Shown here: piece by piece, positions 70 to 19,283 of the stretch
Layout of the letters: each line of letters begins with the position of its first letter
Numbering within the stretch: position 1 is the first letter of the stretch
Made by a program: the position numbers and the translations under genes
The notes under the pieces: model-generated
Seen by the model: the letters and a program-made list of their open reading frames with translations, nothing else
Databases searched by the model: none
Told to the model about the DNA's origin: nothing
From: Thecamonas trahens ATCC 50062
Lineage: Eukaryota > Protista > Apusomonadida
Assembly (NCBI RefSeq): GCF_000142905.1
Contig: NW_013657640.1
Coordinates: forward strand, 145,395-164,677
Length of the DNA stretch: 19,283 nt
Direction of reading: 5' to 3'

Positions 70-1587
70 ATGCCACCCATCCACCCGCTGCTGGCGGCCG
101 TGGCTATGGCTGTAGTCTGCCTCGTGCTCGCTATGGCCAGCCCGCCACCCGCTGCAGGCGCCAGGCACTCGCTGGGGACTACTGATGCTGTGGAGTATGC
201 TGCACAGGTGGAAGCTGCGGCGGCTGCGGCGGCTGCAGGGGCAGCGGCGGCAGCAGAGGCGTCCGGTGCGCGCACTACGTCATCGCTGGGGTCTGGAGAC
301 TGGCTTGCTGGTGCAGGGACAACTGGCGAGCCGGAACAAGTCCACGTTGCGCTCACCGGCTTCCCGCATGCCCTCCGCGTCATGTGGGTCACCTTTGGTG
401 GCGCGGGCGCAGGCGCAGAGGCTGCGTGGGGCACGGCGCCGGGCGTCCTGGCTGCTACCGCCCGGGCCAATGCATCGACATACGACGTTGGCATTCTCGG
501 CGGCTGGCACGGCACCATTCACACCGTAGACATGGTCTTTCCTTCCCACCTGCCCCCACGGACGACGGTCTACTACGCGGTCTCGGGCACCTGCCCCACC
601 GCCTGCTGGTCGCCGGTCTTTTCAGTCGCGCTACCGGCGGCGATCGGAATGGAGACGGCAACCACGCTCGCACTGTGGGGTGACATGGGGACGGTCATTC
701 CTGACGGCTGGCGTGTTGCCGCCGATGTGGCTGCCGCGGCCCGTCGCGCGGATGGGGCCTGGAACGCTATGCACATTGTCGGCGACTTGGCGTACGCCGG
801 CATGGGCGCCCACGATGCTTGGCAACCGATCTGGGACATGTTTGGCCGCCAGATGCAAGACGCCGCAGTCCAGGTGCCGCTCATGGTTTCGGTCGGCAAC
901 CACGAGGAGTACTACGACTTTGAGGCCTACGTCAAGCGCTTCTCGGCTCCGGGAGCCGTCCTCACTCCTGGCGCCAACCGCCACTTCTGGTACTCGTACG
1001 AGGTCGGCAACATCCATGTCACCTCGATGTCGACTGAGCACCCATACCTACCGGGCACGCCGCAATACGCCTGGCTCGCCGCCGATCTCAAGGCTGTTGA
1101 CCGCCGCCGCACCCCGTGGCTTGTCCTCGTCTCGCACCGTCCGTTTCTTGCCTCGGACGCCTTTGAGCACACCGCCCACATCCCCGGCGCACCGCTAGTT
1201 GACTCTGTCGGCCGACTTGCGGCTGCGGCCGGTGTTGATCTTGTTGTCTCGGGCCATTGTCACGTGTACGAGCGGACGCTGCCGACGCTCCCGTCGGGCG
1301 CCGTCACCTCGCACGGCGCCGCCAACGGGACCGTCTTCCACGCCCCGGGCGCGCCCATCTGGATCGTCGCCGGTACCGGCGGCGCCATCTACCCAGACTC
1401 GTGGGTCGTCCCCATTCCACCTTGGTCCGCCGTTCGCATCCACAAGCTCGGCGACGACATCGTGTACGGCTACGGCGTCGTCTCCACAAACGCCACTGCG
1501 CTCGAGTGGACCCTTCATCGCGCCGCCCACTCCAGCTACCCCGGCGGCCCCAGCCACATCCTCGACCGCTTCACACTCATCCGGTGA
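70..1587 (+). CDS. Secreted purple acid phosphatase (metallophosphoesterase superfamily)
   Basis: ATG at 70 to TGA at 1587, 505 aa. The N-terminus is a hydrophobic signal peptide (MPPIHPLLAAVAMAVVCLVLAMASP). All five PAP metal-ligand blocks are present in the canonical order: GDMG, VGDLAY, VGNHE, LVSHRP (VxxH) and SGHCHVYER (GHxH). An N-terminal FN3-like PAP segment (EPEQVHVALTGFPHALRVMWVT) precedes the catalytic domain. Confidence 0.85.
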   Translation: MPPIHPLLAAVAMAVVCLVLAMASPPPAAGARHSLGTTDAVEYAAQVEAAAAAAAAGAAAAAEASGARTTSSLGSGDWLAGAGTTGEPEQVHVALTGFPHALRVMWVTFGGAGAGAEAAWGTAPGVLAATARANASTYDVGILGGWHGTIHTVDMVFPSHLPPRTTVYYAVSGTCPTACWSPVFSVALPAAIGMETATTLALWGDMGTVIPDGWRVAADVAAAARRADGAWNAMHIVGDLAYAGMGAHDAWQPIWDMFGRQMQDAAVQVPLMVSVGNHEEYYDFEAYVKRFSAPGAVLTPGANRHFWYSYEVGNIHVTSMSTEHPYLPGTPQYAWLAADLKAVDRRRTPWLVLVSHRPFLASDAFEHTAHIPGAPLVDSVGRLAAAAGVDLVVSGHCHVYERTLPTLPSGAVTSHGAANGTVFHAPGAPIWIVAGTGGAIYPDSWVVPIPPWSAVRIHKLGDDIVYGYGVVSTNATALEWTLHRAAHSSYPGGPSHILDRFTLIR

Positions 1588-1735
1588 TATTTCATAGTTT
1601 CCAACTGCAAACACTCTTCCGCCGTCAGACAGGCCGCGCGGCCCAGCCAGCTGCCATCGATCCGGGGCCAATCGGTCGTGCCGCTCCGCCACGACGGCCA
1701 GCCAGCCAAGCCAACTAGTCAGCCAGCCAGCCACC

Positions 1736-1999
1736 CCCCACCACGGGCGCACCCACTCCCACGGGCACCCCACTCCACCCTTCCCACCCCCCACCCCCCA
1801 CCCCCCACCCCCCCACCCCCACGCCAAAACCGCCCCCTCCACCCCACCCCCCCCACCCAGGTACGCCCTGCCGCCTCCCGCTGCCCGTTGCCGGTGCCTG
1901 CCTGCGCCCCTTCCCCGAAGCCTCCAACGAATTTTTGCCGGTGGCAGACCACCCCTCTCACACCCGTCCACCGCCCCCTCCCCCTCCCCCCCACGCACA
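1736..1999. repeat. Poly-C / (C5-6A)n low-complexity tract upstream of the PP2C-MOB4 gene
   Basis: The tract reads ccccccaccccccaccccccacccccccacccccacg...ccccctcccccctccccccc. On the minus strand the same runs are G-rich. Confidence 0.7.
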
Positions 2000-2001
2000 G
2001 C

Positions 2002-4257
2002 ATGGCGGACCAGACACTGGGCATCTCGTTTGCGGCTGCAGAGCCCCTGGATGACTCGGACTCGGACGAAGGCGTCGTGGCGCATGTGGCTGACGAGGAC
2101 GACTCGTCGTCGGACCCGCTGTCGTCCGACGACGACGCTACCGAGTCGGACGACGGCGACGGCGGTGATGGCCGCGACGGCGACGGGAGCTCAGCAGTGC
2201 TCGGCATCTCGTTCTCGTCGGCCGCTGGTGGCGACGGCGACGGCGACGACGACGGTGGCGACGACGACGACGACGACGGGCTGCCGGACTCGGACGCCGA
2301 CGATTCGGACGAGGAGCTGTCGGACGATTCGTACGACGAGGACGGCCTGGTGCTTGTGCTCAAGTACGGGGCGCACGGGCTGACCGGGCGGCGCAAGACG
2401 ATGGAGGACGCGCACTTTGCAGCGGTGCAGGCGTCGCAAAAACTAGAGACGGCCGAGACGCAGGGCGGCCCTGCGGTGGGCTTTTTCTCAGTCTTTGACG
2501 GCCACGGCGGCGACGCGTGCGCGCTGTATCTCTCACAGAACATGTTCCCCGCAGTGTTGGAGACGATGCCCGAGCTGGCGATCCGGACCAAGGAGGTTGA
2601 CCCGGAGAGCCTCCCGTCGCAGGCCGAGGAGCTGCAGGCGATGGAGACCAGTCTCCGCGAAGCGTACGCGCTCGCCGAGTCGCGGTTCATCTCGCTTGCC
2701 GAGAGCAAAAACGTTGATTCAGGTGCGACAGCCGTCTCTGCCCTCATTCATGGCAACAAGCTCGTGGTTGCCAACGTTGGCGACTCTGAGGCTGTGCTCT
2801 CGCGTGATGGCATGCCTGTCAACCTGACAGTCATCCACAACCCGGCCAAGAACCCGGCCGAGGAGGAGCGAATTGTGGCTGCCGGCGGGCGGGTGTACAA
2901 GAAGCGGGTGGCGCTACCGTCGGTCCCGCCGCACCTGTGCAACATTGCAGTCTCGCGGGCGTTTGGCGATATCCTGTTCAAAAACACGCCTGACGGGACA
3001 GCGTCGGGGCTGACGGCGGATCCGGACGCAGCCACGTGGCTCATTGAGCCGCAGGATGAGTTTCTCATTTTGGCATGCGATGGGGTGTGGGACGTGATGA
3101 CACACGAGGAGGCTGTCGACGAGGTGTCATCGAGCCTTGCGGCGTCGCAGTACGACCCGCAGGCTGCTGTTGAGTGCCTGGTCAAGGCGGCGTACGCGCG
3201 CGGCTCGACCGACAACATCACTGCGCTGGTGGTGCTCTTCGAGTTTGTGCCCGAGGAGGACCTTCTTGAGCTGCTGGAGGACGACCCGAGCCCGCCGCTG
3301 GCGCTGGATGTCAACGGCGAGCCCGCGAGTACCGAGTTTGAAGGCAAGGTGAGCGAGCTGCAGGCGCTCGGTAACGGGTTCTCACCGGTCGCGCCGGTCC
3401 ACCAGACCGGGACTATCAAGCTTATGCCGCGGACGGCGGCGGGCCCGTCGACGCCGACCGCAGGCGGATCGGGCATTACCTTTGCGGCCACGGGAGCAGG
3501 CTCGGACTCTGACGACGGTGTCTCGCCGTTTGGCGTCGACTCGGACGAGTCGGGCTCTGACGACGAGTGGGACGAGAAGGCGCTGTGGCCGGGCAAGCTC
3601 GCGGCTTACACCGAAGAGACACCACTCAACGGTGCGCAGCGCAACGTGCCGGGCACCAAGCGCGACGAACTGTTTGCATGGAAGGCCGCGCCGCTCGAGG
3701 AGCAGACCGGCTCGCTTGAAGTCCAGCAGTACCTGCAGCAGCTGATCCGGAGCGACCCCGCAGACGTGGACAAGATTGTGGAGACGCCCGAGGGCGTGTC
3801 GTCGGTGGTGTGGCAGTACGAGCACCTGCGCCAGCTGACACTCGAGCTCTCGCATCTGGCAGTCATGCTGGAAGAGTGCGGGTGCTCGCCCGAGTCGTGC
3901 CCCAAGATGAAGGCGACTCAAGAGTGGATGTTCCTCTGCGCAGCCCACAAGGAGCCGCAGGAGTGCTCCGCCATCGACTACATGTGCCACACGCTCGAGG
4001 GCGCCGCCGCGCTGCTCAACTCGCAAAAGTACTTCCCCTCGCGCATCAACCTCAAGGAGGCCGACGCCAAGCCGAACCTCCAGTCGGTCGCCCGCCGCCT
4101 CTATCGTATCTGCGCCCACGCCTTCTTTGCCCATAACGACGCCTTTGAGGAGTTTGAAGCCGAGACGCACACTACCGAGCGCGCCGTCAAGCTCGCTGCC
4201 CGCTACAAGCTTGTTGGCCGCAAGATGCGCATCATCCCGCCTGTCGAGGAGTGGTAA
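2002..4257 (+). CDS. PP2C (PPM) phosphatase fused to a MOB4/phocein (Mob1-family) domain
   Basis: A continuous ORF runs from 1678 with no internal stop. The first ATG after the upstream poly-C tract is at 2002 (MADQTLG); the stop is TAA at 4255-4257. The N-terminal region is rich in acidic D, S and G residues. PP2C motifs at about 2347-3246: RRKTMEDAH, FFSVFDGHGG, VANVGDSEAVLS, IAVSRAFGD, LILACDGVWDV, GSTDNITALVV. The C-terminal ~215 aa match MOB4/phocein almost motif for motif: RNVPGTK..F.W, VQQYLQQLIR.D..DVDKIVE.PEG...VWQYEHLRQ..LEL..LAV.LEEC, C..MKATQEWMFLCAAHK.PQECSAIDY..HTLEGAA.LLNS.KYFPSR, RRLYRI.AHA.F.H.D.FEEFE.ET. Confidence 0.8.
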   Translation: MADQTLGISFAAAEPLDDSDSDEGVVAHVADEDDSSSDPLSSDDDATESDDGDGGDGRDGDGSSAVLGISFSSAAGGDGDGDDDGGDDDDDDGLPDSDADDSDEELSDDSYDEDGLVLVLKYGAHGLTGRRKTMEDAHFAAVQASQKLETAETQGGPAVGFFSVFDGHGGDACALYLSQNMFPAVLETMPELAIRTKEVDPESLPSQAEELQAMETSLREAYALAESRFISLAESKNVDSGATAVSALIHGNKLVVANVGDSEAVLSRDGMPVNLTVIHNPAKNPAEEERIVAAGGRVYKKRVALPSVPPHLCNIAVSRAFGDILFKNTPDGTASGLTADPDAATWLIEPQDEFLILACDGVWDVMTHEEAVDEVSSSLAASQYDPQAAVECLVKAAYARGSTDNITALVVLFEFVPEEDLLELLEDDPSPPLALDVNGEPASTEFEGKVSELQALGNGFSPVAPVHQTGTIKLMPRTAAGPSTPTAGGSGITFAATGAGSDSDDGVSPFGVDSDESGSDDEWDEKALWPGKLAAYTEETPLNGAQRNVPGTKRDELFAWKAAPLEEQTGSLEVQQYLQQLIRSDPADVDKIVETPEGVSSVVWQYEHLRQLTLELSHLAVMLEECGCSPESCPKMKATQEWMFLCAAHKEPQECSAIDYMCHTLEGAAALLNSQKYFPSRINLKEADAKPNLQSVARRLYRICAHAFFAHNDAFEEFEAETHTTERAVKLAARYKLVGRKMRIIPPVEEW
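2347..3246 (+). other. PP2C catalytic domain segment of the fusion ORF
   Basis: Extends from DGLVLVLKYGAHGLTGRRKTMEDAH to STDNITALVVLFEF. The conserved Asp-rich metal-binding motifs are intact. Confidence 0.8.
3640..4254 (+). other. MOB4/phocein (Mob1/phocein family) domain segment of the fusion ORF
   Basis: Residue pattern RN.PGTK...F.W...VQQY.QQ.IR.D....DKI.E.PEG....W.YEHLRQ..LEL..LAV.L..EC...C..M.AT..W.FLCAAHK.P.EC.AIDY..HTL.GAA.LLNS.KYFPSR matches phocein across its whole length. Confidence 0.75.
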
Positions 4258-4352
4258 AGTGCTTTTTCGTTTCCTGCCTGCAGCCGGTCGAGCCCTGCCT
4301 CGCTCGCAAGCCGTGTTGCTGGCTCCTGTTTACGGCAGTGTCTTGTTGAGAG

Positions 4353-5112
4353 TCAAAGAAAGTAATCGGGCACCTGCTTGGCCTGGCCCGACGGCACCTC
4401 ACGGCGGTCCTCGGGCGCAGCGGAGAAGACGTTGAACTCGCGGTTGAGCGAGGCGTCGATCTCGCAGATGGACGCCACGTTGCCGCAGCGGTAGCAGTAG
4501 TTGGGCGCGGACCAGACGGTGGCCAGCAAGCCGTCAAAGTGAATCTGGTAGCCTTCCATGCACAGCTGGTGGGCGCGAAGGACAGTGGAGAGGCCGTTGA
4601 CGTGCAGGAAACGCTCGACGGTGTCTTTGCCGAACAGATGGCCGGCGTTGCGCTGTGAGAGGTTGAATCCGTCACGGTCGGACGGATCCGACCACAGCAG
4701 GTCAGCAAAGACGCCCTCGGACGGCGGCTCGCGGAAGCGGTCGATGAGCTTGATCTGGTCAACCGAGAGCACCGCCGGCGAGAGCCCACCGTGGACACAG
4801 AAGATCTTGCCGGCAATGATGGCCGAGAGCGGGAGGTAGTCAAAGACCTCGCAAAAGTACGACCAAACGTCGGCCGACCCGTACTTTTGCACGACCTCTT
4901 TGTAGAACCCGTACACTTGTGTAATCTGCCGCGACTCGTGGTTGCCGCGCAGCAGCGTGATGCGGTCCGGCCACCGGAGTTTGAGGCACGTCAGCAGCGT
5001 GATCGTCTCCAGGTTAAAGTGCCCGCGGTCCACGTAGTCGCCCAGAAACAGGTATCGCGTATCGGGGCACTCGCCGCCGATCTGGAAGATCTCCAGCAGA
5101 TCGTAGAACTGA
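4353..5112 (-). CDS. Ser/Thr protein phosphatase 4 catalytic subunit (PPP family, PP2A-like), exon 2 of 2
   Basis: Reading the reverse complement gives [83 protein letters not shown], ending in the PP4-like tail [24 protein letters not shown]. Stop is TGA at 4353-4355. The acceptor is ctgcag|T at 5112/5113. I derived the first 26 codons by hand from the reverse complement of 5034-5112, upstream of the listed ORF. Confidence 0.85.
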
Positions 5113-5378
5113 CTGCAGTATCCAGCCGCGATACCGTTACCGTGTTGTTGTGTCGCACCCCGGCTGTCTGTCAGTGGCGAGCCGTCTCTTCTACCCGCCC
5201 CCCCTCCCCCCCTCCCCTCCCCTCTGCGCCCTACCTACCAACCTTCTGCCCACCGCTATCCCACGACAATGCCCACGGCCACCGCCCCCCATCCCCCTCC
5301 CCCCCCCCCTCGCCCCTCCCTCCCTCCCCCTCCCCCCCCCCCCCCCCCCCCCCCACCCCTCCCCCACCCTCAACCTAC
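5113..5378 (-). other. Spliceosomal intron of the PP4c gene (GTAGGT...CTGCAG), 266 nt
   Basis: The consensus donor and acceptor bracket a frame-preserving join. The intron is almost entirely a CT-rich tract on the + strand (GA- and G-rich on the transcript) and includes a C23 homopolymer at 5332-5354. Confidence 0.75.
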
Positions 5379-5539
5379 CCATGGACGTCACCCACAACAG
5401 TCACCGGCGCGTCGACCTCGCACACGTTCGACTCGTCCAGAAGGACGTCAATGACCCGGGTGCAGATGTCCTTGATCGTTGCCTGCGACAGCAGCTCGCA
5501 CCGCTTGAGCTTCTCCAGGCACTTGTCCACGTCGTCCAT
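5379..5539 (-). CDS. Protein phosphatase 4 catalytic subunit, exon 1 of 2
   Basis: ATG at 5539-5537 opens MDDVDKCLEKLKRCELLSQATIKDICTRVIDVLLDESNVCEVDAPVTVVGDVHG, which matches the PP4/PP2A N-terminus. The exon ends with GG|gtaggt, so the donor GT lies at 5378-5377. Splicing joins GG+T to give Gly and continues QFYDLL in frame. The spliced CDS is 921 nt, 306 aa, the normal size for PP4c. Confidence 0.8.
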
Positions 5540-5682: not shown

Positions 5683-8310
5683 CTACTGACCCTGCTCCGA
5701 GACGGCAAGCGCAGAGCCGACAAGGCCGTTGGCGGTGTTGAACAGGTTGACCGGCGAGTTGCCGTCGGTGAGGAGGACAGACGAAAGGCCGAGCGAGCCC
5801 AGGAGCTTGGCCTGCATCTCGGGCCCGGCCTTGGCAATGTCCTTGATGACCTCGGGCGTGATGGCCTCGATCATGGCCTTGAACTTGCCGGTCTCGATCT
5901 CGGTCAGCTGGGCCTTCTTGTCGAGCTCGAGCTTGTTGAGTGCGGCGACGTGGGTGAGCTCGGCGGCGTAGTGGGCCTGCAGCCGCTTGAGCTCAAAGGC
6001 AGCCTCGACGTCTGCGGCGTCTGCACGGAGCTGGGCCTGCTCGACACTGGCCTCGCACTCGATGACGGTGGTGGTGGCCTGGGCCTTGGCCTCGGCCTTG
6101 GCCTTGCCCGTCGTCTTGATCGACTCGCACTCGGCCTGCAGCCGGAGAAGCTCGATCTTGGCAGCCTCGGAGAGGCACGAGTCGCGGATGCGGAGCTGCT
6201 CGAGCTCGCCAAGCGCGTCCTGCTCCTCTCGCTTGGCGACGTTGCGCGCCCGCGCTTCGAGCGCGTCGGTGGTGATCTCGATGGCGAGCGAGACCGACTT
6301 TTGCAGCGAGTCCCGCGTCCGCTGGTCCACGGGGTCAACGTTCTGGATGTCGACGTTGGTGATGACAAGGCCGTTGGCCGGAAAGACCCGCTCGTCGCAG
6401 ACCGAGCCATTGTCGTCGAGGCCAAAGACGGCTGCGCGGATGATACGTGCCGAGTTGGCGTGGAACTCCTGGAACGGAATCGAAGCCACCGTGCCGCGGA
6501 TTGACGAGCCGAGCGCCTTGCACGCGTCGCCCACAAAGTCGGCAACCGAGAAGATCTTGCGGGTCGAATCCTCCGTCGACCGGTCGACACGGAACTCCCA
6601 GTTGTACCCGAGCTGAAGCGAGAGGCGTGCATGGTCCGACGTCTCCACCACGATGACGTCGATCATAAAGTCCGGGCCAAGGTAGAGGAGCAGCGACTTG
6701 ATGGCGTTCGACTGCTTCGGCCGCCCGCCCGAGAGCGAGAAGACCGTGAGGTGCTCATTCGGCTGGAGAAGCACCAGCTCTGGGCCAAACACCACCCGGG
6801 CATCCTTGGTCTTGTAGTCAAAGATCTGGACCGCTGCGTTGTGCGGGACACGGTAGGTGACAACCCGCCACTTTTCGCGCCGCTGCATGCCTGTCAGGCC
6901 AGCCGCCCGCGAGCCGGTCGACGCAAGGTTGAGGATCGTCGACTGCAGGCCCGGCGTGCGGCTTGCAGACGAGGAGAACAGCACGTTTGAGCCGGCAGCA
7001 AGCTCGACCGGGGTGTCGGTGAACGGCGTCTCACCGTTGATGAGCGCCTCCATGTCGGCAGGCAGCTCCTTCTCCCACAGCTCCTCGTCGGCCTGCAGCA
7101 TGTACGACGCGCCGATCTCGGCGCGCACCTTGCCGGTCGTCATGTTGCGGACGTACACGCCCTCGTTCTTGTCGAGCGGAATGAGCCACCGCTGCGCCGC
7201 CACACTGCATTGCGGTGCTGGGTAGTAGTCGCGCGGCCCAAAGACCATCCACCGCTCACCCGGCTCCCGCGCCACGCCCTCGTCGTCCACGTACGCCTCG
7301 ACACACCGCAGCACTAGCGCGTCCTGCTTCGACAGCAGGTGCGCCGTCTGCTTGCCGGCAAGCAGCCGCTCGCCGGGCTGCAGGAAGAACGTCTTGGGCC
7401 CTCGGACCATGGTCTTGGTTCCCAGCACGTTCTTGCCGGTCGACGCGTCCACAGGATCCACAATGACGCAGTAGTCGGTGTTTGAGAGCGAGATCGCCGT
7501 CACAGGCGTCACCAGCTGCTCAAAGACCCCGAGCATGTGCGTCGGCGCCTCGGCAAGCGTCACCAGCCACTCGTCGCCGACCTTGCGCTCGATGCCGTAG
7601 ACATCGGTGAAGGCTTGCGTTGCGCGCAGGTGAAGGCCCGTCGTCTCGGTCAGGACATGCAGCTCCTGCACCTCGACAAGCTCCTCCGTTACCCGGCACA
7701 GGTATCGCCCCGGCTGCCGCACAATCCACTCGGAGCCAGCAAGCCGCGCCGTTCCATCCGGCTCGGTAAAGTCCTCCGTCGCCCGCAGCCGCAGCGCCTG
7801 GGTCTCGAGCACCACTACAGAGTGCACCTCCTCCAGCACCGTCACCACCCGCGACGGCAGATACGTCCGCGGGCCCTTGACCAGCCACTGCTCGCCCGCA
7901 GCACGCGTCACCCCACCCTCGTCCTTCACCTCGCGCTCCGCACGCACCCGCAGCGCAGCGCCGTCCTCAATCACGCGCAGCGGCGTCACGCCCAGCACAA
8001 GTGCCTCGCCCGGGTACAGCGGGAACGGGTCCGGAAAGTCGGCCGCAAGCCGCACCTCCTCGTCACCCCACACGCACACGTAAACCCCGTGCTCGTCAAT
8101 CACAGGCTGCCCGGCGTCATCACGCTCCACAGGATTGGCCACCACGCAGTACGACGCCGGCGGCAGGACAATCATCGCCAGCGGGCCATCCACCACGGTC
8201 TCATGTGCCTTCTTGGTGAACGTCGCTGGGCCAACCACCAGCCGCTGCACATTCGTGTTGTTGTCCTCCACCGTCACATACGAATACGGCCGGATGCGAA
8301 TGAGCGACAC
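5683..8310 (-). CDS. MVP: Major vault protein (MVP), apparently intronless
   Basis: The 875-aa ORF is collinear with metazoan MVP from [19 protein letters not shown] through the repeats (GDEWLV, ALRLRA.E.F.D..G..R..G.EWL, FFLQPGE) and the shoulder ([54 protein letters not shown]). It continues through the A/E/K/Q-rich cap helix to [26 protein letters not shown]. Stop is at 5683-5685. The codon at 8310 is GTG, not ATG, and an in-frame TGA lies two codons upstream. The true initiator is therefore probably in a short upstream exon or is non-AUG. Confidence 0.88.
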
Positions 8311-8905: not shown

Positions 8906-11826
8906 ATGTCTGTTGCCATCCGCATCGAGCTGGATAAGCCGTCAGGATTTACCTCGGCGGTGAGGCCGTCCATGGTGTGGTGGTGGTGGACTGCTCAGCA
9001 CGTGCCGACGCTACGGCCTTCAAGAGCCTCGAGCTGGCGGTCCACTCGGCGGAGCATGTCGAGTGGCAGCGCCAGGAGATGCAGAAGGTTGCCATCGATC
9101 CGTTTGGCCATGGCCACAACCACAGTCATCATCATTCCCACCGCAGCCACAGCCACGGCCACGGCCACCACTCCCACTCTCGCAGCGACAGTGGCTACGG
9201 CGGCGACCGGTTTGTCATCACCCACTCGGGCGGGCAGACCCAGATGGTGATTGAGGATGGAGCAGCTTCGCATGGCTCGTCACACTACGGATCGACCGTC
9301 TGCGAGCCGGGCTACGAGATGCGCCAGGTGACCGTGACTGTCAGCGACTCGGCGCCGGTCGTCACCCTCCGCATCGCACTCGATGCCAAGGGCGGCTCAT
9401 TCGACTCACATGGCGTCTATCACTTTCCGTTTGCCTTTGCCCTTCCAGTCGATACCCAGGGCTCGCTGGAGGTGCCACAGGGCGGGACTGGGACGCCCAT
9501 CACCGGCTCGGTCCGCTACTGGCTCAAGGCCATGCTCACCCGCAAGGGTCTCAAGTTTAACGTAGGCTCGCCACAGCGCGACTTTGTTGTCGCACCGCTC
9601 TTCACCTCGGTTGTTGCCCGGCCCAAGGCGTTGCCTCGCAGCCGGTTGCCGGCGGTGGCGCCTACACTGCCACCCTCTCGCTTGATCGCAATGCTGCTGT
9701 CCCGGGCGAGACCGTTATGGCTCATCTCCACGTCGCCAACAACTCGCCCATGCCCATCTCCTCGGTCACCTTTCAGATTGTCCAGACCATCTCGGGAACA
9801 CGCCGCTCGCCGCCCGAGTCGGGCCAAAAGTCGCTGGTCATTTTCACCTCGTCGCGTCCAGGTGCACAGCCGTACACTCCCCTCACCATCGAGATCGGCA
9901 TCCCGCTGCCGCCGGCATTGTGGGCGACCGTCACCGGCCCGCTCCTCCGCAACGAATACGCCGTTGTCGCTGTCATCCATCCGGCGTCTGGGCCTGACGT
10001 CCATGCCGGTGTCGGCCTCTCGGTTCTCGCTCCGAACGCGCTTGACGGCGGCGCGCTTAAGGCTACCCCTTTGGCACTCCGCTCCGCCTCATCGCCGCCA
10101 AGGCACCGCCGTCAGTTGTCCTCGCTCCGCCACCGGGCGTCGACCCGCTGCCGCTCGACGGCACCGTCCTGCCAGAACGCAAAGTCGGCCTCAAGTCGTG
10201 GCACATGTACTTTATCGACGTTCCCGCCCTCACTCACGAGGCCCGCCTCGAAATCGTTCTTCGTGGAACGTCCAAGGCCACGCTGGCCCTTCGCCTTCGC
10301 AAAGCCTCGCAACCCTCTCATTTGACCTCGTACGACTTTGCCGGCACCAAGGCCGGCAAGCACGTCTACTCGATCGCCATCAACAAGAACAACGGCGTGC
10401 CGCTCCAGCAGGGCCGCTGGTTTGTTGGCGTCTGGGGTACAAACGTCTTCCCACCCTCCTCCAAATATGTTCTCTCCGCCACACTCACTGGTGCCGCTCC
10501 GCCGCCGCCGCCTGCTGCGCTTCCGGAGCGAAGGTCATCGCTAGAGTTGGAGTCTGGCGGCGCATCGTCGTCGGCTGCGCCGTCCACCTCACCGGTCGTT
10601 GCCGACGAAACGCCGCCCCTCCCGCCGTTATCCGGGAATCCGAGAAGTCTGCTACCGCCTCAGCTTCAGCACCGCCGCCGCCGTCGTTTCACGATCCCAA
10701 CTATGCCTCACTCGCGTCGGTGGCTTTGGCGGGATCTGCGTACGCTGCGCCGCCTCCAGAGCCCGGAGCAGGCTCGGCAAGTAGTGTCGAGTCGTCGGCG
10801 GCCGATGGTGCCGGAGTTGCCGACGGCGCCGACGACAACAGCTCGTACAGCATTGCGGCCAGCGAGCTGCAGCGCGGCGAGTTGGTCGGATCAGGCGCGT
10901 TTGGAGTGGTCCATCGCGGTACCTGGCGCGGCGGCGACGTGGCCATCAAGACCATCAAGGTCGATTCGTTGGCTTCCGACGCCGTGGCAGAGTTCAAGGC
11001 CGAGGCCAAGCTCATGCGCCTCCTCCCACCACACCCCAATGTTGTCCAGTTTCTCGGGGTGTGCAAGGCCGGCGAGAACGAGCTCTGCATCGTCTCTTCG
11101 TTTGTGCCTGGCGGCACCCTCCTCGCTCTCCTCCATCCAACCTCGGGCTTTGTGTGGAACGTCGAGAAGAAGCTTGGCGTGGCAGTCGGCATTGCCGCCG
11201 GCCTCCTGCATCTCTCAGCCGAGTCGATTGTCCACCGCGATCTTGCCGCCCGCAACATCCTTGTCTCGGTCGGCGGCCATGGCCCGGCAGCCACAGTCAC
11301 GCCACTCCTCACCGACTTTGGCATGAGCCGCGACGCGTCAGGCGCCGGCGACAACTACACCGCGTCCGTTGTCGGCCCGGTCAAGTGGATGGCGGTCGAG
11401 GCCATCACACATCGCAAGTACTCGGCCAAGTCGGACGTCTGGTCGTTCGGCGTGCTTCTCTTTGAGATCTTCACCCAAACTGAGCCGTACGCCGGCCTCA
11501 CTCCGCTGCAGGTTGCAGCCGGTGTCTCCAGTGGCTCACTCACCCTCGACCTCGATGGCCACGCAGCTGACATCCCTCCGCCCGTCGTTGATCTCATTCA
11601 AGCCTGTATGGCCCACGAGCCCGAAGACCGACCCTCAGTTCGTGACCTGTTCCGCACCGTCTCGCACCTCCGCACTCAACTCAGCCCAACGCCCAGGCCT
11701 ATCAGCTATGCCACTGTCAACCCGTTTGCCCCATCGTCGTCGGCGTCGTCGTCCCCGGCCGCAACCCCGACACAGACCGCAACCTCAGGCCCGGCCTTTG
11801 CCTACTCGGAGAATCTGGGTGGATAA
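8906..11826 (+). CDS. Arrestin-fold (N+C) / beta-sandwich / TKL protein kinase multidomain gene, reading frame broken in four places (possible pseudogene or assembly indels)
   Basis: ATG at 8906 opens MSVAIRIELDKP (arrestin-N-like start) in frame 2. From 8938 frame 1 continues arrestin-N: VRIYLGGEAVHGVVVVDCS...GVYHFPFAFALPVDTQGSLEV...GSVRYWLKAMLTRKGLKFNVGSPQRDFVVAPLF. An arrestin-C domain sits in frame 3 at about 9640-10060: GGGAYTATLSLDRNAAVPGETVMAHLHVANNSPMPISSVTFQIVQTI...LLRNEYAVVAVIHP. A beta-sandwich (PPC/P-domain-like) domain sits in frame 2 at 10061 to about 10560: LPLDGTVLPERKVGLKSWHMYFIDVPALTHEARLEIVLRG...GKHVYSIAI...GRWFVGVWGT...YVLSATL. The kinase is back in frame 1 at about 10864-11685: GSGAFGVV, VAIKTIK, HRDLAARN, DFG, PVKWMAVE. 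Stop is TAA at 11824-11826. The listed 949-aa ORF at 8977..11826 stays open only because frame 1 has no stop; its middle 350 codons are an R/S/P-rich off-frame translation. Confidence 0.6.
10864..11685 (+). other. Protein kinase catalytic domain (tyrosine-kinase-like, TKL) of the arrestin-kinase gene
   Basis: Gly loop LVGSGAFGVVHRG, VAIK lysine, HRDLAARN catalytic loop, DFG and PVKWMAVE (APE-like) are all present. The domain appears catalytically competent. Confidence 0.85.
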
Positions 11827-12046: not shown

Positions 12047-13249
12047 TTAGCCGGTAAACGCGAGAGCAATGTTGACGCCAGAGAGGACGCCAGCGTTGAG
12101 GAGGAAGCTCATCTGGATGCCACCGTTCTCCTTCTCGTACGGCTCGAGCTCGTCGGGCCCATACATCATCGCCAGCGTGCCACAGTAGCCGTTGGAGAGG
12201 GCAAAGAAGGCCATGAAAAGAAACGGGTAGCCGGCCCAGCTGGTAAAGTACGGCTCGGTAAAGGTGCCGGCAGCGAGGAGGAAGAGCGGGACAAAGGCGA
12301 GGCGGCAGAGGATGGGGATGAGCAGGGTCCGTGGCGAGAAGAGGCGGATGAAGCGCGGCGAAGTGCGGCCGATATAGTCAAAGAGCATAAACTCGGAAGT
12401 GAGGAGGACCTGGTACCAACCCGAACTGAGAAAGTTGGGGTCCTTGGGCTTGATCTGCGAGGTGACGCCCGGGAACATGGAGAGGGTGACGACAAAGACA
12501 ATGTAAACGCCGAGTCCCTCCTTCCAGAGCTTGGAGAAGACTTCGACGACGGACGGGTCTGTGCGGCAGACGATGACACCGTCCGAGTAGACGTCTAGCT
12601 GCGGGCGAGGGCTCAGTGCCTGAGAGTCGGCGGTAGTGACGTCTGTGGCATCCAGCGCAGGCGGCTGCGACTGGGCCACGATGTGGTACTTGACAAACGG
12701 GTGGCGGAGCATGGCAAAGTACAGGGTGATGCAGACAGCCAGGACAAGACCGGCGAGTGAAAAATAGATAAACGTCGACTCGCGCAGGCCCTTCTCGGTG
12801 TTGGGCAGCGAGGCCTTGGTGACGATACGGAGGGCAGCGGCGACGATTCCGGAGAGGCCGATGCCCGACATGGCGGCGGTGATGTACGACGAGGGGAAGA
12901 GCGAGGCAAATCCCAAGACGGTGCCAAAGACCACTCCGGTGCAGACACCCGTGATAAAGACAGCGAAGAGAGTGAGCCAGAGCTCGACGTCGTAGGAGAG
13001 GCCGAGCAGCGAGAGGCAGGGTGTGACGACGAGCATGACTAGCGAGATGGAGTACGTGGCGGCGATACGAGTCGAGACCGACCATGAGGCGGCGTAACGG
13101 ACCGAGACAAACAGCATGATGAGCGAGGGATAGTTGAAGGCGCACGAGATGCGGAACTCGATGTTGTTGCCGAATCGCTCCGAGAAGTAGTCAAAGGCCG
13201 AGATGAACGAGTTCCAGGCCATCAGCACGCCCGTACCCAGAATGACCAT
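12047..13249 (-). CDS. Equilibrative nucleoside transporter (ENT/SLC29 family)
   Basis: The 404-aa ORF contains ENT hallmarks: GTGVLMAWNSFISAFDYF (the TM1 PWN region), SGIGLSG, the MFPGV...TSEFMLFDYIGR segment, LAFVPLFLL, and FALSNGY near the C-terminus. It has multiple hydrophobic TM segments and a central hydrophilic loop. Stop is TAA at 12049-12047. The codon at 13261 is GTG with an in-frame TAG three codons upstream. The first ATG is at 13249-13247 (MVILGTG..), so the 5' end is uncertain. Confidence 0.85.
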   Translation of the reverse strand: MVILGTGVLMAWNSFISAFDYFSERFGNNIEFRISCAFNYPSLIMLFVSVRYAASWSVSTRIAATYSISLVMLVVTPCLSLLGLSYDVELWLTLFAVFITGVCTGVVFGTVLGFASLFPSSYITAAMSGIGLSGIVAAALRIVTKASLPNTEKGLRESTFIYFSLAGLVLAVCITLYFAMLRHPFVKYHIVAQSQPPALDATDVTTADSQALSPRPQLDVYSDGVIVCRTDPSVVEVFSKLWKEGLGVYIVFVVTLSMFPGVTSQIKPKDPNFLSSGWYQVLLTSEFMLFDYIGRTSPRFIRLFSPRTLLIPILCRLAFVPLFLLAAGTFTEPYFTSWAGYPFLFMAFFALSNGYCGTLAMMYGPDELEPYEKENGGIQMSFLLNAGVLSGVNIALAFTG

Positions 13250-13261
13250 CGCCAGCCACAC

Positions 13262-13480: not shown

Positions 13481-14059
13481 CCTTGTCACGTGGCGCCTTG
13501 CGCAAAAGGGGCTGGCCAGCCTTTCCGTCCTCCTCGCCATGGAGGCGCTCATACGACTTGCCCATGTGGCCGTGGCAACGGAGAGGTGGGGCAAAGGGAG
13601 GTACGGCTGGTGATGGCACCGCTTTCGCCAGAGCCATTGCCGATGGACGACCAGCCGGTGAAAGGCGGCCAGTGGCAGGGGAGGGGGAGGGGAAGGGGGG
13701 GGGGGAGGAAGGCAGTTGCTGTGTGATGGATGATGAATGGTATGATCGACGGGGAGAGTGGCATCATACAGATGCTGTCGATGTCGATGATCGTCTCTGG
13801 GGACTCATCGCACCATGCACACCCCCGGGATGGAATAATCATCGGTGGGGGTGCTGGACATGTGATGATCGTTCCATGTGCAGGCTCTGGGACGTGTGTT
13901 GATCGACCACCGGGGGAGGGTGATGGCTGTGGTTGAGCCGCGTGTGGCGGGAAGGCCGTGCACTCTCGTCGCCGGCGGGGCGGGCCTTGGCCGGGTGCCA
14001 TTGGGCCAGCCACCTGACTCGGACTCGGCGGTAGCAGGGCGGGCCTGGGCGGGGCGGGC

Positions 14060-15397
14060 ATGGACGAGCTTGATTCGAGTGCCACCGACAATGACGAGGT
14101 GAGGCTGCTGGCCGGGGACTGGGGACTGCTAGACGGTGACTCGAGTAGTGGCGGTGTGCATGGCGAGGCCGACGTGGCGAGGAAGCCGCCGCCGCCTCTG
14201 GACTCGCCGCCGCCTGCTGCCCAACCATCGCCTGATGCCCGGCCGCCACCACCTCCGGACTCACCGCCGCCTGATGCCCAATCATCGCCTGATGCCCGGC
14301 CGCCACCACCTCCGGACTCGCCGCCACCTGCTGTCCAACCATCGCCGCCTCCGGACTCACCGCCGCCTAATGCCCGGCCGCCACCTCCTCCGGACTCGCC
14401 GCCGCCTGATGCCCAATCATCGCCTGATGCCCGGCCGCCACCTCCTCCGGACTCGCCGCCACCTGCTGTCCAACCATCGCCGCCTCCGAACTCACCGCCG
14501 CCTAATGCCCGGCCGCCACCTCCTCCGGACTCGCCGCCGCCTGATGCCCAATCATCGCCTGATGCCCGGCCGCCACCTCCTCCGGACTCACCGCCGCCTG
14601 CTGTCCAACCATCGCCGCCTCCGGACTCACCGCCGCCTGATGCCCGGCCGCCACCTCCTCCGGACTCGCCGCCGCCTGTTGCCCAATCATCGTCGCCTCC
14701 GGACTCGCCGCCGCCTGATGCCCAATCATCGCCTGATGCCCGGCCGCCACCTCCTCCGGACTCGCCGCCACCTGCTGTCCAACCATCGCCGCCTCCGAAC
14801 TCGCCGCCGTCTGATGCCCGGCCGCCACCTCCTCCGGACTCGCCGCCACCTGCTGTCCAACCATCGCCGCCTCCGGACTCACCGCCGCCTAATGCCCGGC
14901 CGCCACCTCCTCCGGACTCGCCGCCGCCTGATGCCCAATCATCGCCTGATGCCCGGCCGCCACCTCCTCCGGACTCGCCGCCACCTGCTGTCCAACCATC
15001 GCCGCCTCCGAACTCGCCGCCGTCTGATGCCCGGCCGCCACCACCTTCGGACTCGCCGCCGCCTGCTGCCCAACCATCGCCTGATGCCCGGTCGCCACCT
15101 CCTCCGGACTCACCGCCGCCTGCTGTCCAACCATCGCCGCCTCCGGACTCACCGCCGCCTGATGCCCGGCCGCCACCTCCTCCGGACTCGCCGCCGCCTG
15201 TTGCCCAATCATCGTCGCCTCCGGACTCGCCGCCGCCTGATGCCCAATCATCGCCTGATGCCCGGCCGCCACCTCCTCCGGACTCGCCGCCACCTGCTGT
15301 CCAACCATCGCCGCCTCCGAACTCGCCGCCGTCTGATGCCCGGCCGCCACCACCTCCGGACTCGCCGCCGCCTGCTGAACTCACCGCCGCCTGATGC
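14060..15397 (+). CDS. Proline-rich tandem-repeat protein, N-terminal part (frame 2) ending at a TGA created by a 20-nt deletion in one repeat unit
   Basis: ATG at 14060 opens MDELDSSATDNDEVRLLAGDWGLLDGDSSSGGVHGEADVARK. Repeat units follow: DAQSSP / DARPPPPPDSPPP / AVQPSPPPDSPPP / NARPPPPPDSPPP. Frame 2 ends ..SPPPAELTAA* at 15395-15397. There, gctg|aactcaccgcc lacks the canonical tccaaccatcgccgcctccg. Confidence 0.55.
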
Positions 15398-15672
15398 CCG
15401 GCCGCCACCTCCTCCGGACTCGCCGCCACCTGCTGTCCAACCATCGCCGCCTCCGAACTCACCGCCGCCTGTTGAACAAGCATCGCCGCCTCCGAACTCG
15501 CCGCCGCCTGATGCCCGGCCGCCACCACCTCCGGACTCGCCGCCGCCTGTTGCCCAACCATCGCCTGATGCCCGGCCGATACCACCTCCGGACTCACCGC
15601 CGCCTGTTGCCCAATCATCGCCTGATGCCCGGCTGCCAATGCCCGGCTGCCACCTCCTCCGGACTCGCCGCC
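14184..15672 (+). repeat. Coding tandem repeat with higher-order structure: 39/18-nt subunits forming 135-nt units, with nested duplications up to about 520 nt
   Basis: The gatgcccaatcatcgcct landmark recurs at 14273, 14408 and 14543 (135-nt spacing). It then recurs at 14718, 14930 and 15239. The gttgcccaatcatcgtcgcct variant recurs at about 14680 and 15200, a spacing near 520 nt. On the + strand the units translate as PPPPDSPPP-type repeats; the minus strand gives GGGESGGG. Confidence 0.85.
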
Positions 15673-17449
15673 GCCTGCTGCCGCTGCCCGCCTGTACAAA
15701 ATTGTGGCTGAAGAGGTCACCCAAGAACTCGCTGACGCCACCATTGACGCTGTCACTACCGAATTGTCCCACAACATCACCCGCGATGTGCTGCTCGTCG
15801 CTGACGCCTCTTCAGTCGTCGAAGATCTTGTCACCGACGCTGCCGCCGCTGTGGCTGCCGCCGTCCATTCTTCGGCCGTCAACGAGGCCAACGCGGCCGC
15901 TGAGATTGTGGACAATGTGATTACAGATGGAGTCGCTGTATTGCTCTCCATGCTTGCTGCAGAAGCTGTATCTGAACACGCTGCCGCTCTGGACGCCGCT
16001 CTGGACACCGTTATTGCTGACCTTGCTGCAGACGTCATCGATCATGATAGTTCACTCGTCGCCGCCGCTGCCCTTGACCACGCTCGCGATGTCGACGCCG
16101 CCAGCCATGGACTCGCTGATGAGATCTTTGATGCTGCGGTGACGACTGCACTTCTTGCCAGCGCTGAGCACGCGCTGGACGTTGATCTTGCCGGGCGCGA
16201 GGTTGTTGACGAGCTCGTCGATGGCGTCTGTGCCATTGTCGCTGACGCCGCCCTGCACCACGAGCGCCTTATCGAGGCCGCATTCGCCGAGCTCGTGGAG
16301 CAGCTTACTGATGATCTCGGCCTTGAGGCGGGAATGGAGGCCTGGGATGAGCTAGTCTTTGAAGACGCCGTTGACTGCTGTGTATCGGAGCTCACGGATG
16401 ACTTTTCGGCCTTCCTCGCCTTTGACACCTACATCATGCAGGAGGCCATTGAGGCCGGGACCCAGGAGTGCTATGCCGAGTATGTGGGCGAGGTCACTGC
16501 CTTCTGTGCAGCTGACATTCTGCTTTACGAGCGCGCTCTTCATGCCGCGCTGGTTGAAGAGCTGCAGCTGTGGACCGACGATCTTGCGCTCGAGGTGGCG
16601 TCGGACGTTGTCACCGACGCACTCATTGTGGCCATGCCGCTGATGGAGCCACAGCTTCCGCGGACCACGCACTATACCCCAGCTATCCAGGCTCAGCTGG
16701 CGGCATTTGCCGAGTGGACCGGCGCCGTCCGCGCCCTTCTCCCCAAGATCGATGCTGGTCTCGACGCCGAGCTCGCGGTTGCTGCCGCCTGGCCACCACC
16801 GCCAGAGCTACACCTCGCGCACGATGGCATTGCCCTCGTTGGTCCTGCGCCCGACGAGCCTGGCGACCTCGCGCTGGTTGTGCTCACCGAGCCCGAGCCC
16901 GCCACGCTCGCCGCCGCCGCGCCTCTTGCGCTCGCCTGCATCCCGCGACTTGCCCGCTCAGGCGTTGTCCCTCCACGCTGCTCCATCGTTGCGCACGTTT
17001 CTATCTCTGCTGCATCTGCTGCGCTTCACTACGCGCTGCAGCCGTCGGTCCGCGCCGCCTGCGCCGCCCTCTCCGACGCACTCGAGCACGAGCCGTACGA
17101 TGTTGCTCGCGCTGCCGACGCCCTCGAACTGCCACAGCTCTACGTTTTGGCTATGGCCTTTACGTACAACACCCTTGACTCACTGGCGTCGATGCTCGAC
17201 GAGCTCGGTACCTCGTTTATGATGCGCCTCTCGCCGCGAGCATGGCGCAAAGTCGACCGCGCGCTTGCGGGCAAGCCTCGGGACACGCCTTCGCTGCCGG
17301 CGCAAAAGACAGTCATGGACCTGCTCTGGTTCCTTCGCACGACTGCGTTGGTGCCAATCCGCCTCAACTACCAGTCTGCAGCCTCGCGCTGGCGCATCGA
17401 GTACGCACGCGCGGCCGTGGCAGCGCCTGGTGCATCGGCTCCGCTGTAA
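15626..17449 (+). CDS. C-terminal part of the same gene: final repeat units plus an acidic A/D/E/L-rich helical domain of unknown family (frame 2)
   Basis: Frame 2 reopens at 15626: ..NARLPPPPDSPPPAAAARLYKIVAEEVTQELADATIDAV... It runs 600 codons to TAA at 17447-17449. The domain has a complex protein-like composition (FLAFDTYIMQEAIEAGTQECYAEYVGEVTAFCAADILLYERALHAALVEELQLW...). Between 15398 and 15625 the repeat is readable only in frame 3. I recognise no conserved domain. Confidence 0.55.
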   Translation, partial: CPAANARLPPPPDSPPPAAAARLYKIVAEEVTQELADATIDAVTTELSHNITRDVLLVADASSVVEDLVTDAAAAVAAAVHSSAVNEANAAAEIVDNVITDGVAVLLSMLAAEAVSEHAAALDAALDTVIADLAADVIDHDSSLVAAAALDHARDVDAASHGLADEIFDAAVTTALLASAEHALDVDLAGREVVDELVDGVCAIVADAALHHERLIEAAFAELVEQLTDDLGLEAGMEAWDELVFEDAVDCCVSELTDDFSAFLAFDTYIMQEAIEAGTQECYAEYVGEVTAFCAADILLYERALHAALVEELQLWTDDLALEVASDVVTDALIVAMPLMEPQLPRTTHYTPAIQAQLAAFAEWTGAVRALLPKIDAGLDAELAVAAAWPPPPELHLAHDGIALVGPAPDEPGDLALVVLTEPEPATLAAAAPLALACIPRLARSGVVPPRCSIVAHVSISAASAALHYALQPSVRAACAALSDALEHEPYDVARAADALELPQLYVLAMAFTYNTLDSLASMLDELGTSFMMRLSPRAWRKVDRALAGKPRDTPSLPAQKTVMDLLWFLRTTALVPIRLNYQSAASRWRIEYARAAVAAPGASAPL

Positions 17450-19073: not shown

Positions 19074-19115
19074 TCCAGACCAGTAGCGAGAGGAGTCGTG
19101 AAGAAGAGTCCACCA

Positions 19116-19181
19116 GGCAGGAAGGTAGCCAGGGAGGAAGGTAGCCAGGCAGGTGGGTAGCCTGGCAGGTGGGTAGCCACA
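19116..19181. repeat. Four degenerate tandem copies of a 16-nt motif, 45-110 nt upstream of the acid phosphatase ATG
   Basis: The copies are caggaaggtagccagg / gaggaaggtagccagg / caggtgggtagcctgg / caggtgggtagccac. Confidence 0.6.
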
Positions 19182-19283
19182 CCAGGCCACCCCGGTCATC
19201 CTACGCCCATCCACCCCATCCACCCACCCCCCCCACCCCATCCACCTACATTCCATTCCATCCACCCACCCCCACGAGATGCC

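Follow-up and report, generated by a model that had tools for sequence, protein, structure and literature searches.

A predicted PP2C-MOB4/phocein fusion protein of Thecamonas trahens and its conservation in an uncultured marine relative

Gene structure and conservation of the fusion

The window (the whole stretch of 19,283 nucleotides of Thecamonas trahens ATCC 50062 DNA that was analysed) carries a gene whose product is predicted to join a PP2C phosphatase domain and a MOB4/phocein module in one polypeptide, and comparison of the sequence with that of a second species indicates that this gene fusion is genuine and selectively maintained in the apusomonad lineage and is not a merged gene model. 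The reading that we favour, with a probability of roughly 0.6, is that of a selectively kept fusion in which a competent PP2C is tethered by a flexible linker of about 130 residues to a MOB4 domain serving as its phosphatase-targeting subunit, the mechanism being one that we infer from these parts.

The reading frame is open from 1678 to 4257, its first ATG lies at 2002, and the single 751-aa ORF that starts there on the forward strand runs without an intron to a TAA stop (Table 1). The product is 100% identical to KNC52390.1 (XP_013755434.1, A0A0L0DJK6) of T. trahens ATCC 50062, whose public label is 'protein phosphatase 2C' only. The initial annotation had proposed that one uninterrupted frame encodes both domains; the ORF, the NCBI model and the orthologue of the second species agree with the continuous frame, and the Pfam profiles PF00481 and PF03637 both match within it.

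Table 1. Coordinates of the fusion gene, its parts and its convergent neighbour in the window
Feature	Position	Strand	Evidence
PP2C-MOB4 fusion CDS (predicted)	2002..4257	+	ORF scan; identity to KNC52390.1; 65%-identical marine orthologue with equal layout
N-terminal disordered acidic region, aa 1-115	2002..2346	+	Composition, motif scan, pLDDT <50
PP2C (PPM) catalytic domain, aa 116-415	2347..3246	+	Pfam, solved relatives, motif invariance
Disordered linker, aa 416-545	3247..3636	+	Alignments, pN/pS, codon GC, AF2 pLDDT
MOB4/phocein module, aa 546-751	3637..4254	+	Structure-chain matches, Foldseek, residue mapping
Intergenic spacer, 95 nt, between convergent stops	4258..4352	.	Sequence
PP4c/PP-X catalytic subunit gene, 306 aa, convergent neighbour	4353..5539	-	Product identical to KNC52391.1

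The decisive evidence for a real fusion, as far as sequences can tell, is its conservation in a second species. The search in related genomes that had been suggested at the outset recovered the fusion in one uncultured marine relative, whose metagenomic orthologue (P0002/P0242, 740/742 aa) is 65% identical to the T. trahens protein and lies on five fetched marine DNA contigs (L001, L002, L083-L085) from five assemblies, every one of which carries the uninterrupted fusion ORF with the PP4c neighbour tail-to-tail. Between the two orthologues the synonymous differences are saturated (pS 0.49-0.88), pN ranges from 0.15 to 0.40 with the linker included, and all indels are in frame. In both species the periodicity of GC content by codon position extends across the linker, and the open stretch upstream lacks it; the GC1/2/3 values are.77/.45/.84 for the N-terminal region and.70/.52/.81 for the linker, the latter resembling those of the flanking domains. 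Since the frame, the codon periodicity and conserved peptides have all persisted despite saturated synonymous sites, the junction appears to be translated under selection.

A stop-free linker of about 130 codons is weak evidence when taken alone at 65% GC, with an estimated P of about 0.04 plus a 1/3 chance of a frame match. Stop-free stretches are indeed common at this GC content, many spurious overlapping ORFs are found in the window, and the fusion frame itself extends without a stop 324 nt upstream of the true ATG, all of which could be taken to favour an artefact, that is, an assembly chimera or neighbouring genes merged by annotation. This explanation is nevertheless effectively refuted, because independent metagenome assemblies of a different species show an equal continuous ORF, the linker combines purifying selection with coding periodicity, and the one plausible intron lacks conservation and would ruin the reading frame of MOB4. 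That candidate, a GT-AG interval of 115 nt at 3349-3463 (GTGAGC to CCGCAG), was rejected: its removal shifts the frame, leaving a truncated protein of 542 aa that lacks MOB4, neither its donor nor its acceptor is conserved in the orthologue, and the interval encodes conserved residues.

The PP2C domain

The PF00481 profile matches aa 121-406 over positions 2-255 of 255 (E=2.6e-54; 185 bits, cut-off 20.3). The motifs that bind metal and phosphate, namely RRKTMED (130-136), DGHGG (166-170), GDSE (260-263), CDGVWD (359-364) and STDN (402-405), are present, all of their residues are invariant between the T. trahens protein and the marine orthologue, and the domain as a whole gives a pN of 0.21 versus a pS of 0.63 in this comparison. 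Among solved structures the best matches are PPM1B (3.8e-30) and PPM1A (3e-26), and what is shared with PP2C/PPM enzymes of this type is an entire catalytic domain in which no conserved metal-binding motif is missing. In the AF2 model the core at 160-300 has a pLDDT of about 90 and aa 302-352, which are poorly modelled, fall below 50; Foldseek matched PP2C structures at E of about 1e-9, with a TM of only 0.35-0.50. Judged by its motifs, the domain is a working-looking, catalytically competent-looking Ser/Thr phosphatase.

The nearest free-standing PP2C relatives are labelled ILKAP-like by JGI. One of them, P0003, is 43% identical to the PP2C of the fusion, including the HNP.KNP.E..R..A.GGR motif and a helix after the domain. 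The partners of PP2C in the other architectures met in the searches are FHA, kinase, LRR, RhoGAP or Arf/Ras-type domains; Mob is not among them, whereas the fusion carries a MOB4 module.

The N-terminal region and the linker

The first 115 residues include 38 Asp and 18 Ser and contain two conserved G-I-S-F motifs, at aa 7-10 (2020-2031) and aa 68-71 (2203-2214); the start of the protein, 'MA..LGISF', is kept in the marine orthologue. The linker had been described as rich in acidic residues and serine, and its composition confirms this and adds glycine and proline. Its pLDDT in the AF2 model is mostly <50, and its pN is 0.40 (0.25 in the block 466-496) versus a pS of 0.79-0.82. Two blocks in it are conserved, LDVNGE at aa 435-440 and GT[IV]KLMPR..GPSTPT.GGSGI[ST]F at aa 469-494 (3406-3483), and the second of these is followed by an acidic and Ser-rich tract and then by a conserved LWPGK. 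The block at 469-494 holds a third motif of the same kind, G-I-T-F (3472-3483), together with Met475. The codon for this methionine is the internal ATG that the initial annotation had placed at 3421; its position is 3424-3426.

Met475 raises the question of two products, in which an internal promoter or a start at this codon would yield a PP2C and, separately, a MOB4 of about 277 aa, with the full-length fusion as a minor or additional form. The conservation of Met475 in both species within the KLMPR block and the usual size of standalone MOB4s (200-260 aa) speak for such an arrangement. We regard it as improbable, however, given that GT[IV]KL, GN.F.PV and LDVNGE just upstream of Met475 are conserved as protein where synonymous sites are saturated, that neither species loses frame or codon periodicity anywhere along the linker, and that the PP2C part has no in-frame stop of its own.

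The conserved GI[ST]F and S/T-P motifs of the linker probably serve docking or autoregulation. The full-length AF2 model, in which docking of the linker or of GISF on either domain was sought, gave no confident inter-domain geometry (pTM 0.47), and comparison of GI[ST]F with the known phosphatase docking motifs RVxF, LxxIxE and FxxP gave no consistent fit.

The MOB4/phocein module

The initial assignment of the C-terminus to MOB4/phocein is upheld by both profile and structure-chain matches. PF03637 (Mob1_phocein) matches aa 588-741 over profile positions 8-165 of 170 (E=2.5e-32; 112.7 bits, cut-off 27), and the C-terminal 227 aa align to residues 11-213 of the 225 of human MOB4 in STRIPAK (7k36_H) with E=5.5e-66; 5yf4_A matches at 6.7e-53. 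The MOB1 and MOB2 chains match far more weakly (best MOB1 1.3e-9, MOB2 1.9e-5), and the named database matches of the Mob domain are phocein, MOB4 or 'preimplantation protein 3'. By match scores, the C-terminus of the fusion is a full-length MOB4/phocein orthologue that is nearer to MOB4 than to MOB1 or MOB2.

The module is modelled by AF2 with a pLDDT >90, and Foldseek superposes it on the cryo-EM STRIPAK MOB4 (7k36_H) with a TM (target) of 0.89 and an rmsd of 2.3 A. The putative Zn-site residues C628, C633, H706 and H711 align with C79, C84, H161 and H166 of MOB1A, and the basic triad R698, R699 and R702 aligns with K153, R154 and R157. The RRxxR triad of the fusion is kept in both species and forms a putative phosphate pocket. 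In MOB1A the basic pocket of the K153/R154/R157 type has a role in phospho-Thr binding, and the binding of MOB4 to MST4 through an analogous pocket requires phosphorylation of the kinase linker (PMC7096357). In fold, Zn ligands and basic phosphate pocket, the C-terminal 206 aa resemble a full-length class IV Mob (human MOB4, 7K36 chain H, 5YF4). The MOB4 homologues from our searches differ: nearly all of them stand alone, at about 200-260 aa, and none has PP2C, whereas in the fusion the module makes up the C-terminal portion of a 751-aa enzyme. Identity of the Mob domain to the standalone MOB4s of animals, fungi and amoebae is 48-53% (48-50% to human MOB4), an ordinary level which suggests that it has not drifted after the fusion.

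These features also bear on the possibility that the module was repurposed to regulate the PP2C in cis and is not a STRIPAK or kinase adaptor; MOB4 could, for example, bind S/T-P sites or sites flanking GI[ST]F in its own linker or N-terminus when these are phosphorylated, and so gate the active site. Conservation of S/T-P sites and repetition of GI[ST]F in disordered regions of the same polypeptide are consistent with this, as are the conserved phosphate-binding triad and the autoinhibition of MOB1 by its own N-terminal segment (PMC7096357). We consider cis regulation unlikely all the same, in that identity to standalone MOB4s over the whole length of the module argues for constrained surfaces facing external partners and AF2 predicted no intramolecular docking.

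Occurrence of the architecture

The combination of domains had been flagged as unusual, and an exhaustive phmmer/HMMER scan of 1.84 billion cluster representatives substantiated this, since besides the T. trahens protein only a single orthologue, the marine P0002, spanned both domains. The long Mob4 matches, once checked with Pfam, were vertebrate models with a spurious N-terminus, WD40+Mob or abhydrolase+Mob, and none carried PP2C. The scan of JGI metagenomes gave 80 loci that were all PP2C-only, with no Mob found by tblastn. A word-index search with the MOB4 domain returned 140 matches, all Mob-only; it missed the query protein itself and was not relied on. A literature search for a description of a PP2C-MOB4 fusion, including Thecamonas, apusomonad and STRIPAK, found none. 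Among the databases searched, PP2C-MOB4 is, by predicted domain content, a new architecture of known parts that is confined to one lineage. With carriers known in no more than two species, the fusion may be a quirk of its lineage and mean little in general.

Proposed mechanism and its implications

In animals, the basic pocket of MOB4 binds phospho-Thr linker motifs of Ste20-type GCKII/III (MST) kinases, and a surface of MOB4 docks into the striatin/STRIP1/PP2A (STRIPAK) core. What the fusion suggests is that MOB4 is the arm by which a phosphatase is targeted. In the reading that we favour, the MOB4 module would be the targeting subunit of the tethered PP2C, its phosphate pocket docking phosphorylated Ste20/GCK kinases, or STRIPAK. 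As the pocket binds kinases and the surface docks STRIPAK, this would bring kinases in their active, phosphorylated state, or other clients of STRIPAK, close to the PP2C active site to be dephosphorylated there. The fusion would in this way supply STRIPAK with a phosphatase activity that depends on Mg/Mn and is insensitive to okadaic acid, or replace PP2A in it. The logic is shared with STRIPAK itself (striatin-PP2A A/C-STRIP1-MOB4), in which a phosphatase is coupled to MOB4, a binder of activated Ste20-type kinases (PMC7096357). The difference is that STRIPAK uses PP2A, a PPP family enzyme, coupled non-covalently via striatin, whereas the fusion is predicted to have a PPM enzyme in covalent linkage to MOB4.

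Whether MOB4 recruits substrates for dephosphorylation has yet to be settled (PMC7096357). The fusion, kept across saturated synonymous divergence, would provide an independent argument for MOB4 as a phosphatase-targeting module, and it offers a single-chain system for testing MOB4-directed PP2C on phospho-MST peptides. It also puts forward a PP2C subfamily as a possible partner of STRIPAK or of the Hippo pathway in other eukaryotes. Its reach is that of one small protist lineage and of an already public sequence, with a function that we infer.

The case resembles Rosetta-stone fusions in that two proteins which are separate in all other organisms sampled are here joined and kept under selection; it differs in that no separate sign of an interaction between a PP2C and MOB4 was met in other eukaryotes, and the literature naming both, as judged by titles and abstracts, seems to draw no link between them. 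Read in this manner, the fusion would imply that MOB4 was ancestrally the phospho-dependent, substrate-recruiting arm of a phosphatase and that a PPM/PP2C enzyme is a bona fide catalytic partner of MOB4/STRIPAK, which we think quite unlikely. Were it true, the apusomonad STRIPAK would be a dual-phosphatase (PP2A + PP2C) or PP2C-driven machine, and a free PP2C elsewhere (P0003-like or ILKAP-like) might, so far unrecognised, interact with MOB4/STRIPAK and inactivate MST/GCKIII kinases.

The convergent PP4c neighbour

A PP4 catalytic subunit gene had been noted 95 nt tail-to-tail from the fusion, and both the stop positions (4255-4257 for the fusion, 4353-4355 for the neighbour) and the homologues support this. 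The gene consists of exons 4353-5112 and 5379-5539 on the reverse strand, separated by a G-rich intron of 266 nt (5113-5378), and its spliced product exactly equals KNC52391.1. Most of its named homologues are 'phosphatase 4 catalytic subunit' or 'PP-X', and against the human enzymes it shows 58% identity for PP4C, 56% for PP2A and 54% for PP6. The gene is context and need not belong to the system. A third related organism came to light through its PP4c (P0378, 70% identity); the tail-to-tail neighbour there is an Ala-rich coiled-coil protein, so that this organism is uninformative on the fusion. On the marine contigs the spacer measures about 22-43 nt, and the PP4c neighbour is broken at the matching intron position.

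Domain composition of the fusion protein

The window comes from the nuclear genome of Thecamonas trahens ATCC 50062, an apusomonad flagellate, and the product of its fusion gene was 100% identical to KNC52390.1 / XP_013755434.1 / UniProt A0A0L0DJK6, for which 'protein phosphatase 2C' is the sole database name. The frame is open from 1678 and its first ATG, at 2002, begins a conserved 'MA..LGISF'. The 324 nt upstream (1678-2001) are C-rich and lack codon periodicity (GC1/2/3 =.75/.71/.77); they form a polypyrimidine tract resembling proline codons, with ccccacccc repeats, which leaves the frame open and probably belongs to the 5' UTR or the promoter.

The initial annotation had described this frame as an intact PP2C phosphatase joined to a MOB4/phocein module, and profile searches bore out both assignments. 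The PP2C domain identified by Pfam spans aa 121-406 and is complete (E=2.6e-54, profile positions 2-255 of 255); its metal and phosphate-binding motifs RRKTMED, DGHGG, GDSE, CDGVWD and STDN are all present and are invariant between T. trahens and a marine relative. The nearest solved structures were PPM1B and PPM1A, and the nearest free-standing proteins were the ILKAP-labelled group (e.g., the standalone PP2C P0003, 43% identity). Mob1_phocein was found at aa 588-741 (E=2.5e-32). The last 227 residues matched residues 11-213 of the 225 of human MOB4/phocein in the STRIPAK cryo-EM structure (7K36 chain H) with E=5.5e-66, and the MST4-MOB4 crystal structure (5YF4) with E=6.7e-53, in comparison to only 1e-9 to 2e-5 for the solved MOB1 and MOB2 chains; the module is therefore a MOB4 orthologue and not just a Mob protein. 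Based on alignment to human MOB1A, whose landmark positions fell correctly, the Cys2-His2 zinc ligands (C628, C633, H706, H711) are retained, as is a basic triad (R698, R699, R702) aligned with MOB1A K153, R154 and R157. The MOB1A triad coordinates phosphate and MOB4 has an analogous pocket, and the binding of MOB4 to MST4 depends on phosphorylation of the MST4 linker (PMC7096357).

An AlphaFold2 model was computed from 94 sequences in a composite alignment. Its Mob module had pLDDT above 90 and, superposed on 7k36_H, gave TM 0.89 and rmsd 2.3 A; confidence in the PP2C core was high at aa 160-300 and poor at aa 302-352, and the N-terminus and linker were disordered; the pTM was 0.47, and the predicted inter-domain arrangement is therefore unreliable.

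Evidence for a single polypeptide

Taken alone, a stop-free linker in DNA of 65% GC is weak evidence of a single protein, and the ORF listing of the window contains many spurious long ORFs. A second species, however, carries an orthologue of 740 aa (P0002) and an allele of 742 aa (P0242) that differs by an in-frame 'DA' repeat unit. Their genes lie on five contigs that were retrieved from as many marine metagenome assemblies, Tara Oceans among them, all five with a single uninterrupted fusion ORF. The marine protein is 65% identical to that of T. trahens and shares its order of acidic N-terminus, PP2C, linker and MOB4. By the Nei-Gojobori method, synonymous sites were essentially saturated (pS 0.49-0.88), and pN was 0.21 for PP2C, 0.15 for Mob and 0.40 for the linker, with 0.25 against a pS of 0.82 in the linker block aa 466-496. 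All indels between the two species are in frame, and in both the GC3 of the linker is much higher than its GC2, the same pattern as in the flanking domains. Judging from these substitution patterns, the linker is under purifying selection, and so, on the same comparison, is translation across the PP2C-MOB4 junction.

The lone intron-like signal in the linker (3349-3463, 115 nt) would upon removal shift the frame and lose MOB4; it is unconserved and the interval encodes conserved residues. An assembly or annotation artefact is excluded by the second-species ORF, the selection, the frame, the periodicity and the failed intron signal together. An additional MOB4-only isoform may start from Met475, which is conserved; its ATG lies at 3424-3426 and not at 3421, the one coordinate of the initial annotation that needed correction.

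Rarity of the architecture

When 1.84 billion cluster representatives were scanned exhaustively with HMMER, P0002 alone spanned both domains (949 bits), and the next-best score, 222 bits, is at single-domain level. The longer Mob4 proteins listed were mis-extended vertebrate models or putative WD40+Mob or abhydrolase+Mob models. A JGI metagenome scan for further fusions returned nothing but PP2C-only loci, and a word-index search with the MOB4 segment gave 140 homologues, all Mob-only (157-389 aa, mostly 200-260 aa), although this search missed the query's own protein (P0001) and P0002 and its negatives should not be over-read. No description of a PP2C-MOB4 architecture was found in the literature searched. 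Since these searches gave no other case, T. trahens and a single uncultured marine relative are the only known carriers of the fusion. The domain architecture is new, combines two well-known families, and is selectively conserved and phylogenetically very restricted; its sequence was already in the databases, unremarked. The original observation is confirmed and its interpretation supported, the domains by Pfam, the single frame by the second species, and the rarity by the scans.

Two library proteins, P0310 (501 aa) and P0352 (612 aa), are candidates for other non-canonical MOB4 architectures, WD40+Mob and alpha/beta-hydrolase+Mob.

Possible role of the MOB4 module

MOB4 is a core STRIPAK subunit in animals and fungi, and the Ste20-type kinases bound by it are inactivated by the PP2A of STRIPAK. 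These kinases are bound in their activated, phosphorylated form, and a review treats the contribution of MOB4 to substrate recruitment as an open question (PMC7096357). On the most parsimonious interpretation of the fusion, MOB4 would be the targeting arm of a tethered PP2C: the module may dock phosphorylated MST/GCK kinases, the striatin/STRIP1 scaffold, or both, and the linker, flexible and about 130 residues long, would bring client phospho-sites within range of the PP2C site. The Mob domain has kept 48-53% identity to free MOB4 orthologues, the ordinary MOB4 level, an argument for the continued use of its external interfaces. Alternatively, MOB4 could act in cis by binding phosphorylated sites of its own linker and so regulate PP2C.

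A G-I-[ST]-F motif occurs at homologous positions, with three copies in T. trahens and four in the marine relative, within acidic disordered regions that are otherwise poorly conserved, and the third copy ends the conserved linker block GT[IV]KLMPR..GPSTPT.GGSGI[ST]F. It fits none of the known phosphatase docking motifs RVxF, LxxIxE and FxxP; the repeats and the GPSTPT block point to putative docking or regulatory elements. The main value of the fusion is as a natural experiment on the role of MOB4, and it also hints at a possible link between PP2C and STRIPAK.

Genomic surroundings

Features of the window and motif copies in the marine orthologue
Feature	Position	Strand	Remark
Purple acid phosphatase	70-1587	+	
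PP2C-MOB4 fusion gene	2002-4257	+	751 aa
G-I-[ST]-F copies, T. trahens	2020-2031, 2203-2214, 3472-3483 (aa 7-10, 68-71, 491-494)	+	motif scan
G-I-[ST]-F copies, orthologue on marine contig L001	aa 5, 68, 72, 479		motif scan
PP4c/PP-X gene	exons 4353-5112, 5379-5539; intron 5113-5378	-	spliced product exactly KNC52391.1
Major vault protein gene	5683-8310	-	intron-free, 875 aa; Vault repeats and shoulder domain; adjoins PP4c gene
949-aa ORF with kinase	8977-11826	+	clear tyrosine-kinase-like/TKL domain in last third only, aa 632-893
Equilibrative nucleoside transporter	12047-13261	-	
Histidine acid phosphatase	17460-19265	-	

The PP4 catalytic subunit gene reported as tail-to-tail neighbour does lie 95 nt away (4258-4352). 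Most of its named homologues carry the label 'PP4 catalytic subunit' or 'PP-X', and its identity to the human sequences was 58% for PP4C, 56% for PP2A and 54% for PP6, a small margin. With the stops this close, the two 3' UTRs must be extremely short or overlap on opposite strands; the spacer in the marine contigs is about 22-43 nt (L001 2597-2639). In the marine species the PP4c/PP-X gene likewise follows the fusion gene, with a break at the same intron position. In a more distant organism, whose PP4c is 70% identical, another gene is the neighbour; we regard the adjacency as conserved synteny of close relatives and not as a sign of a functional unit. The lone 266-nt intron consists mostly of long stretches of G in the coding strand, and its position (after GDVHG) is apparently common to the marine relative, in whose contigs the match does not begin before residue 55; on L086, a contig of a more distant relative, the CDS is uninterrupted.

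The 19 kb hold four phosphatases of unrelated folds (PP2C, PP4c, purple acid and histidine acid), a clustering that is probably coincidence. Upstream of its kinase domain the 949-aa ORF resembles Arg/Pro-rich sequence read out of frame; the real gene therefore probably starts later or contains introns. Tandem repeats at 13549-16038 are very GC-rich (0.72) and open for >440 codons on both strands, reading GGGESGGGGGRASGDDWAS on the minus and PPPPDSPPPDAQSSPDAR on the plus strand, with coding putative on either.
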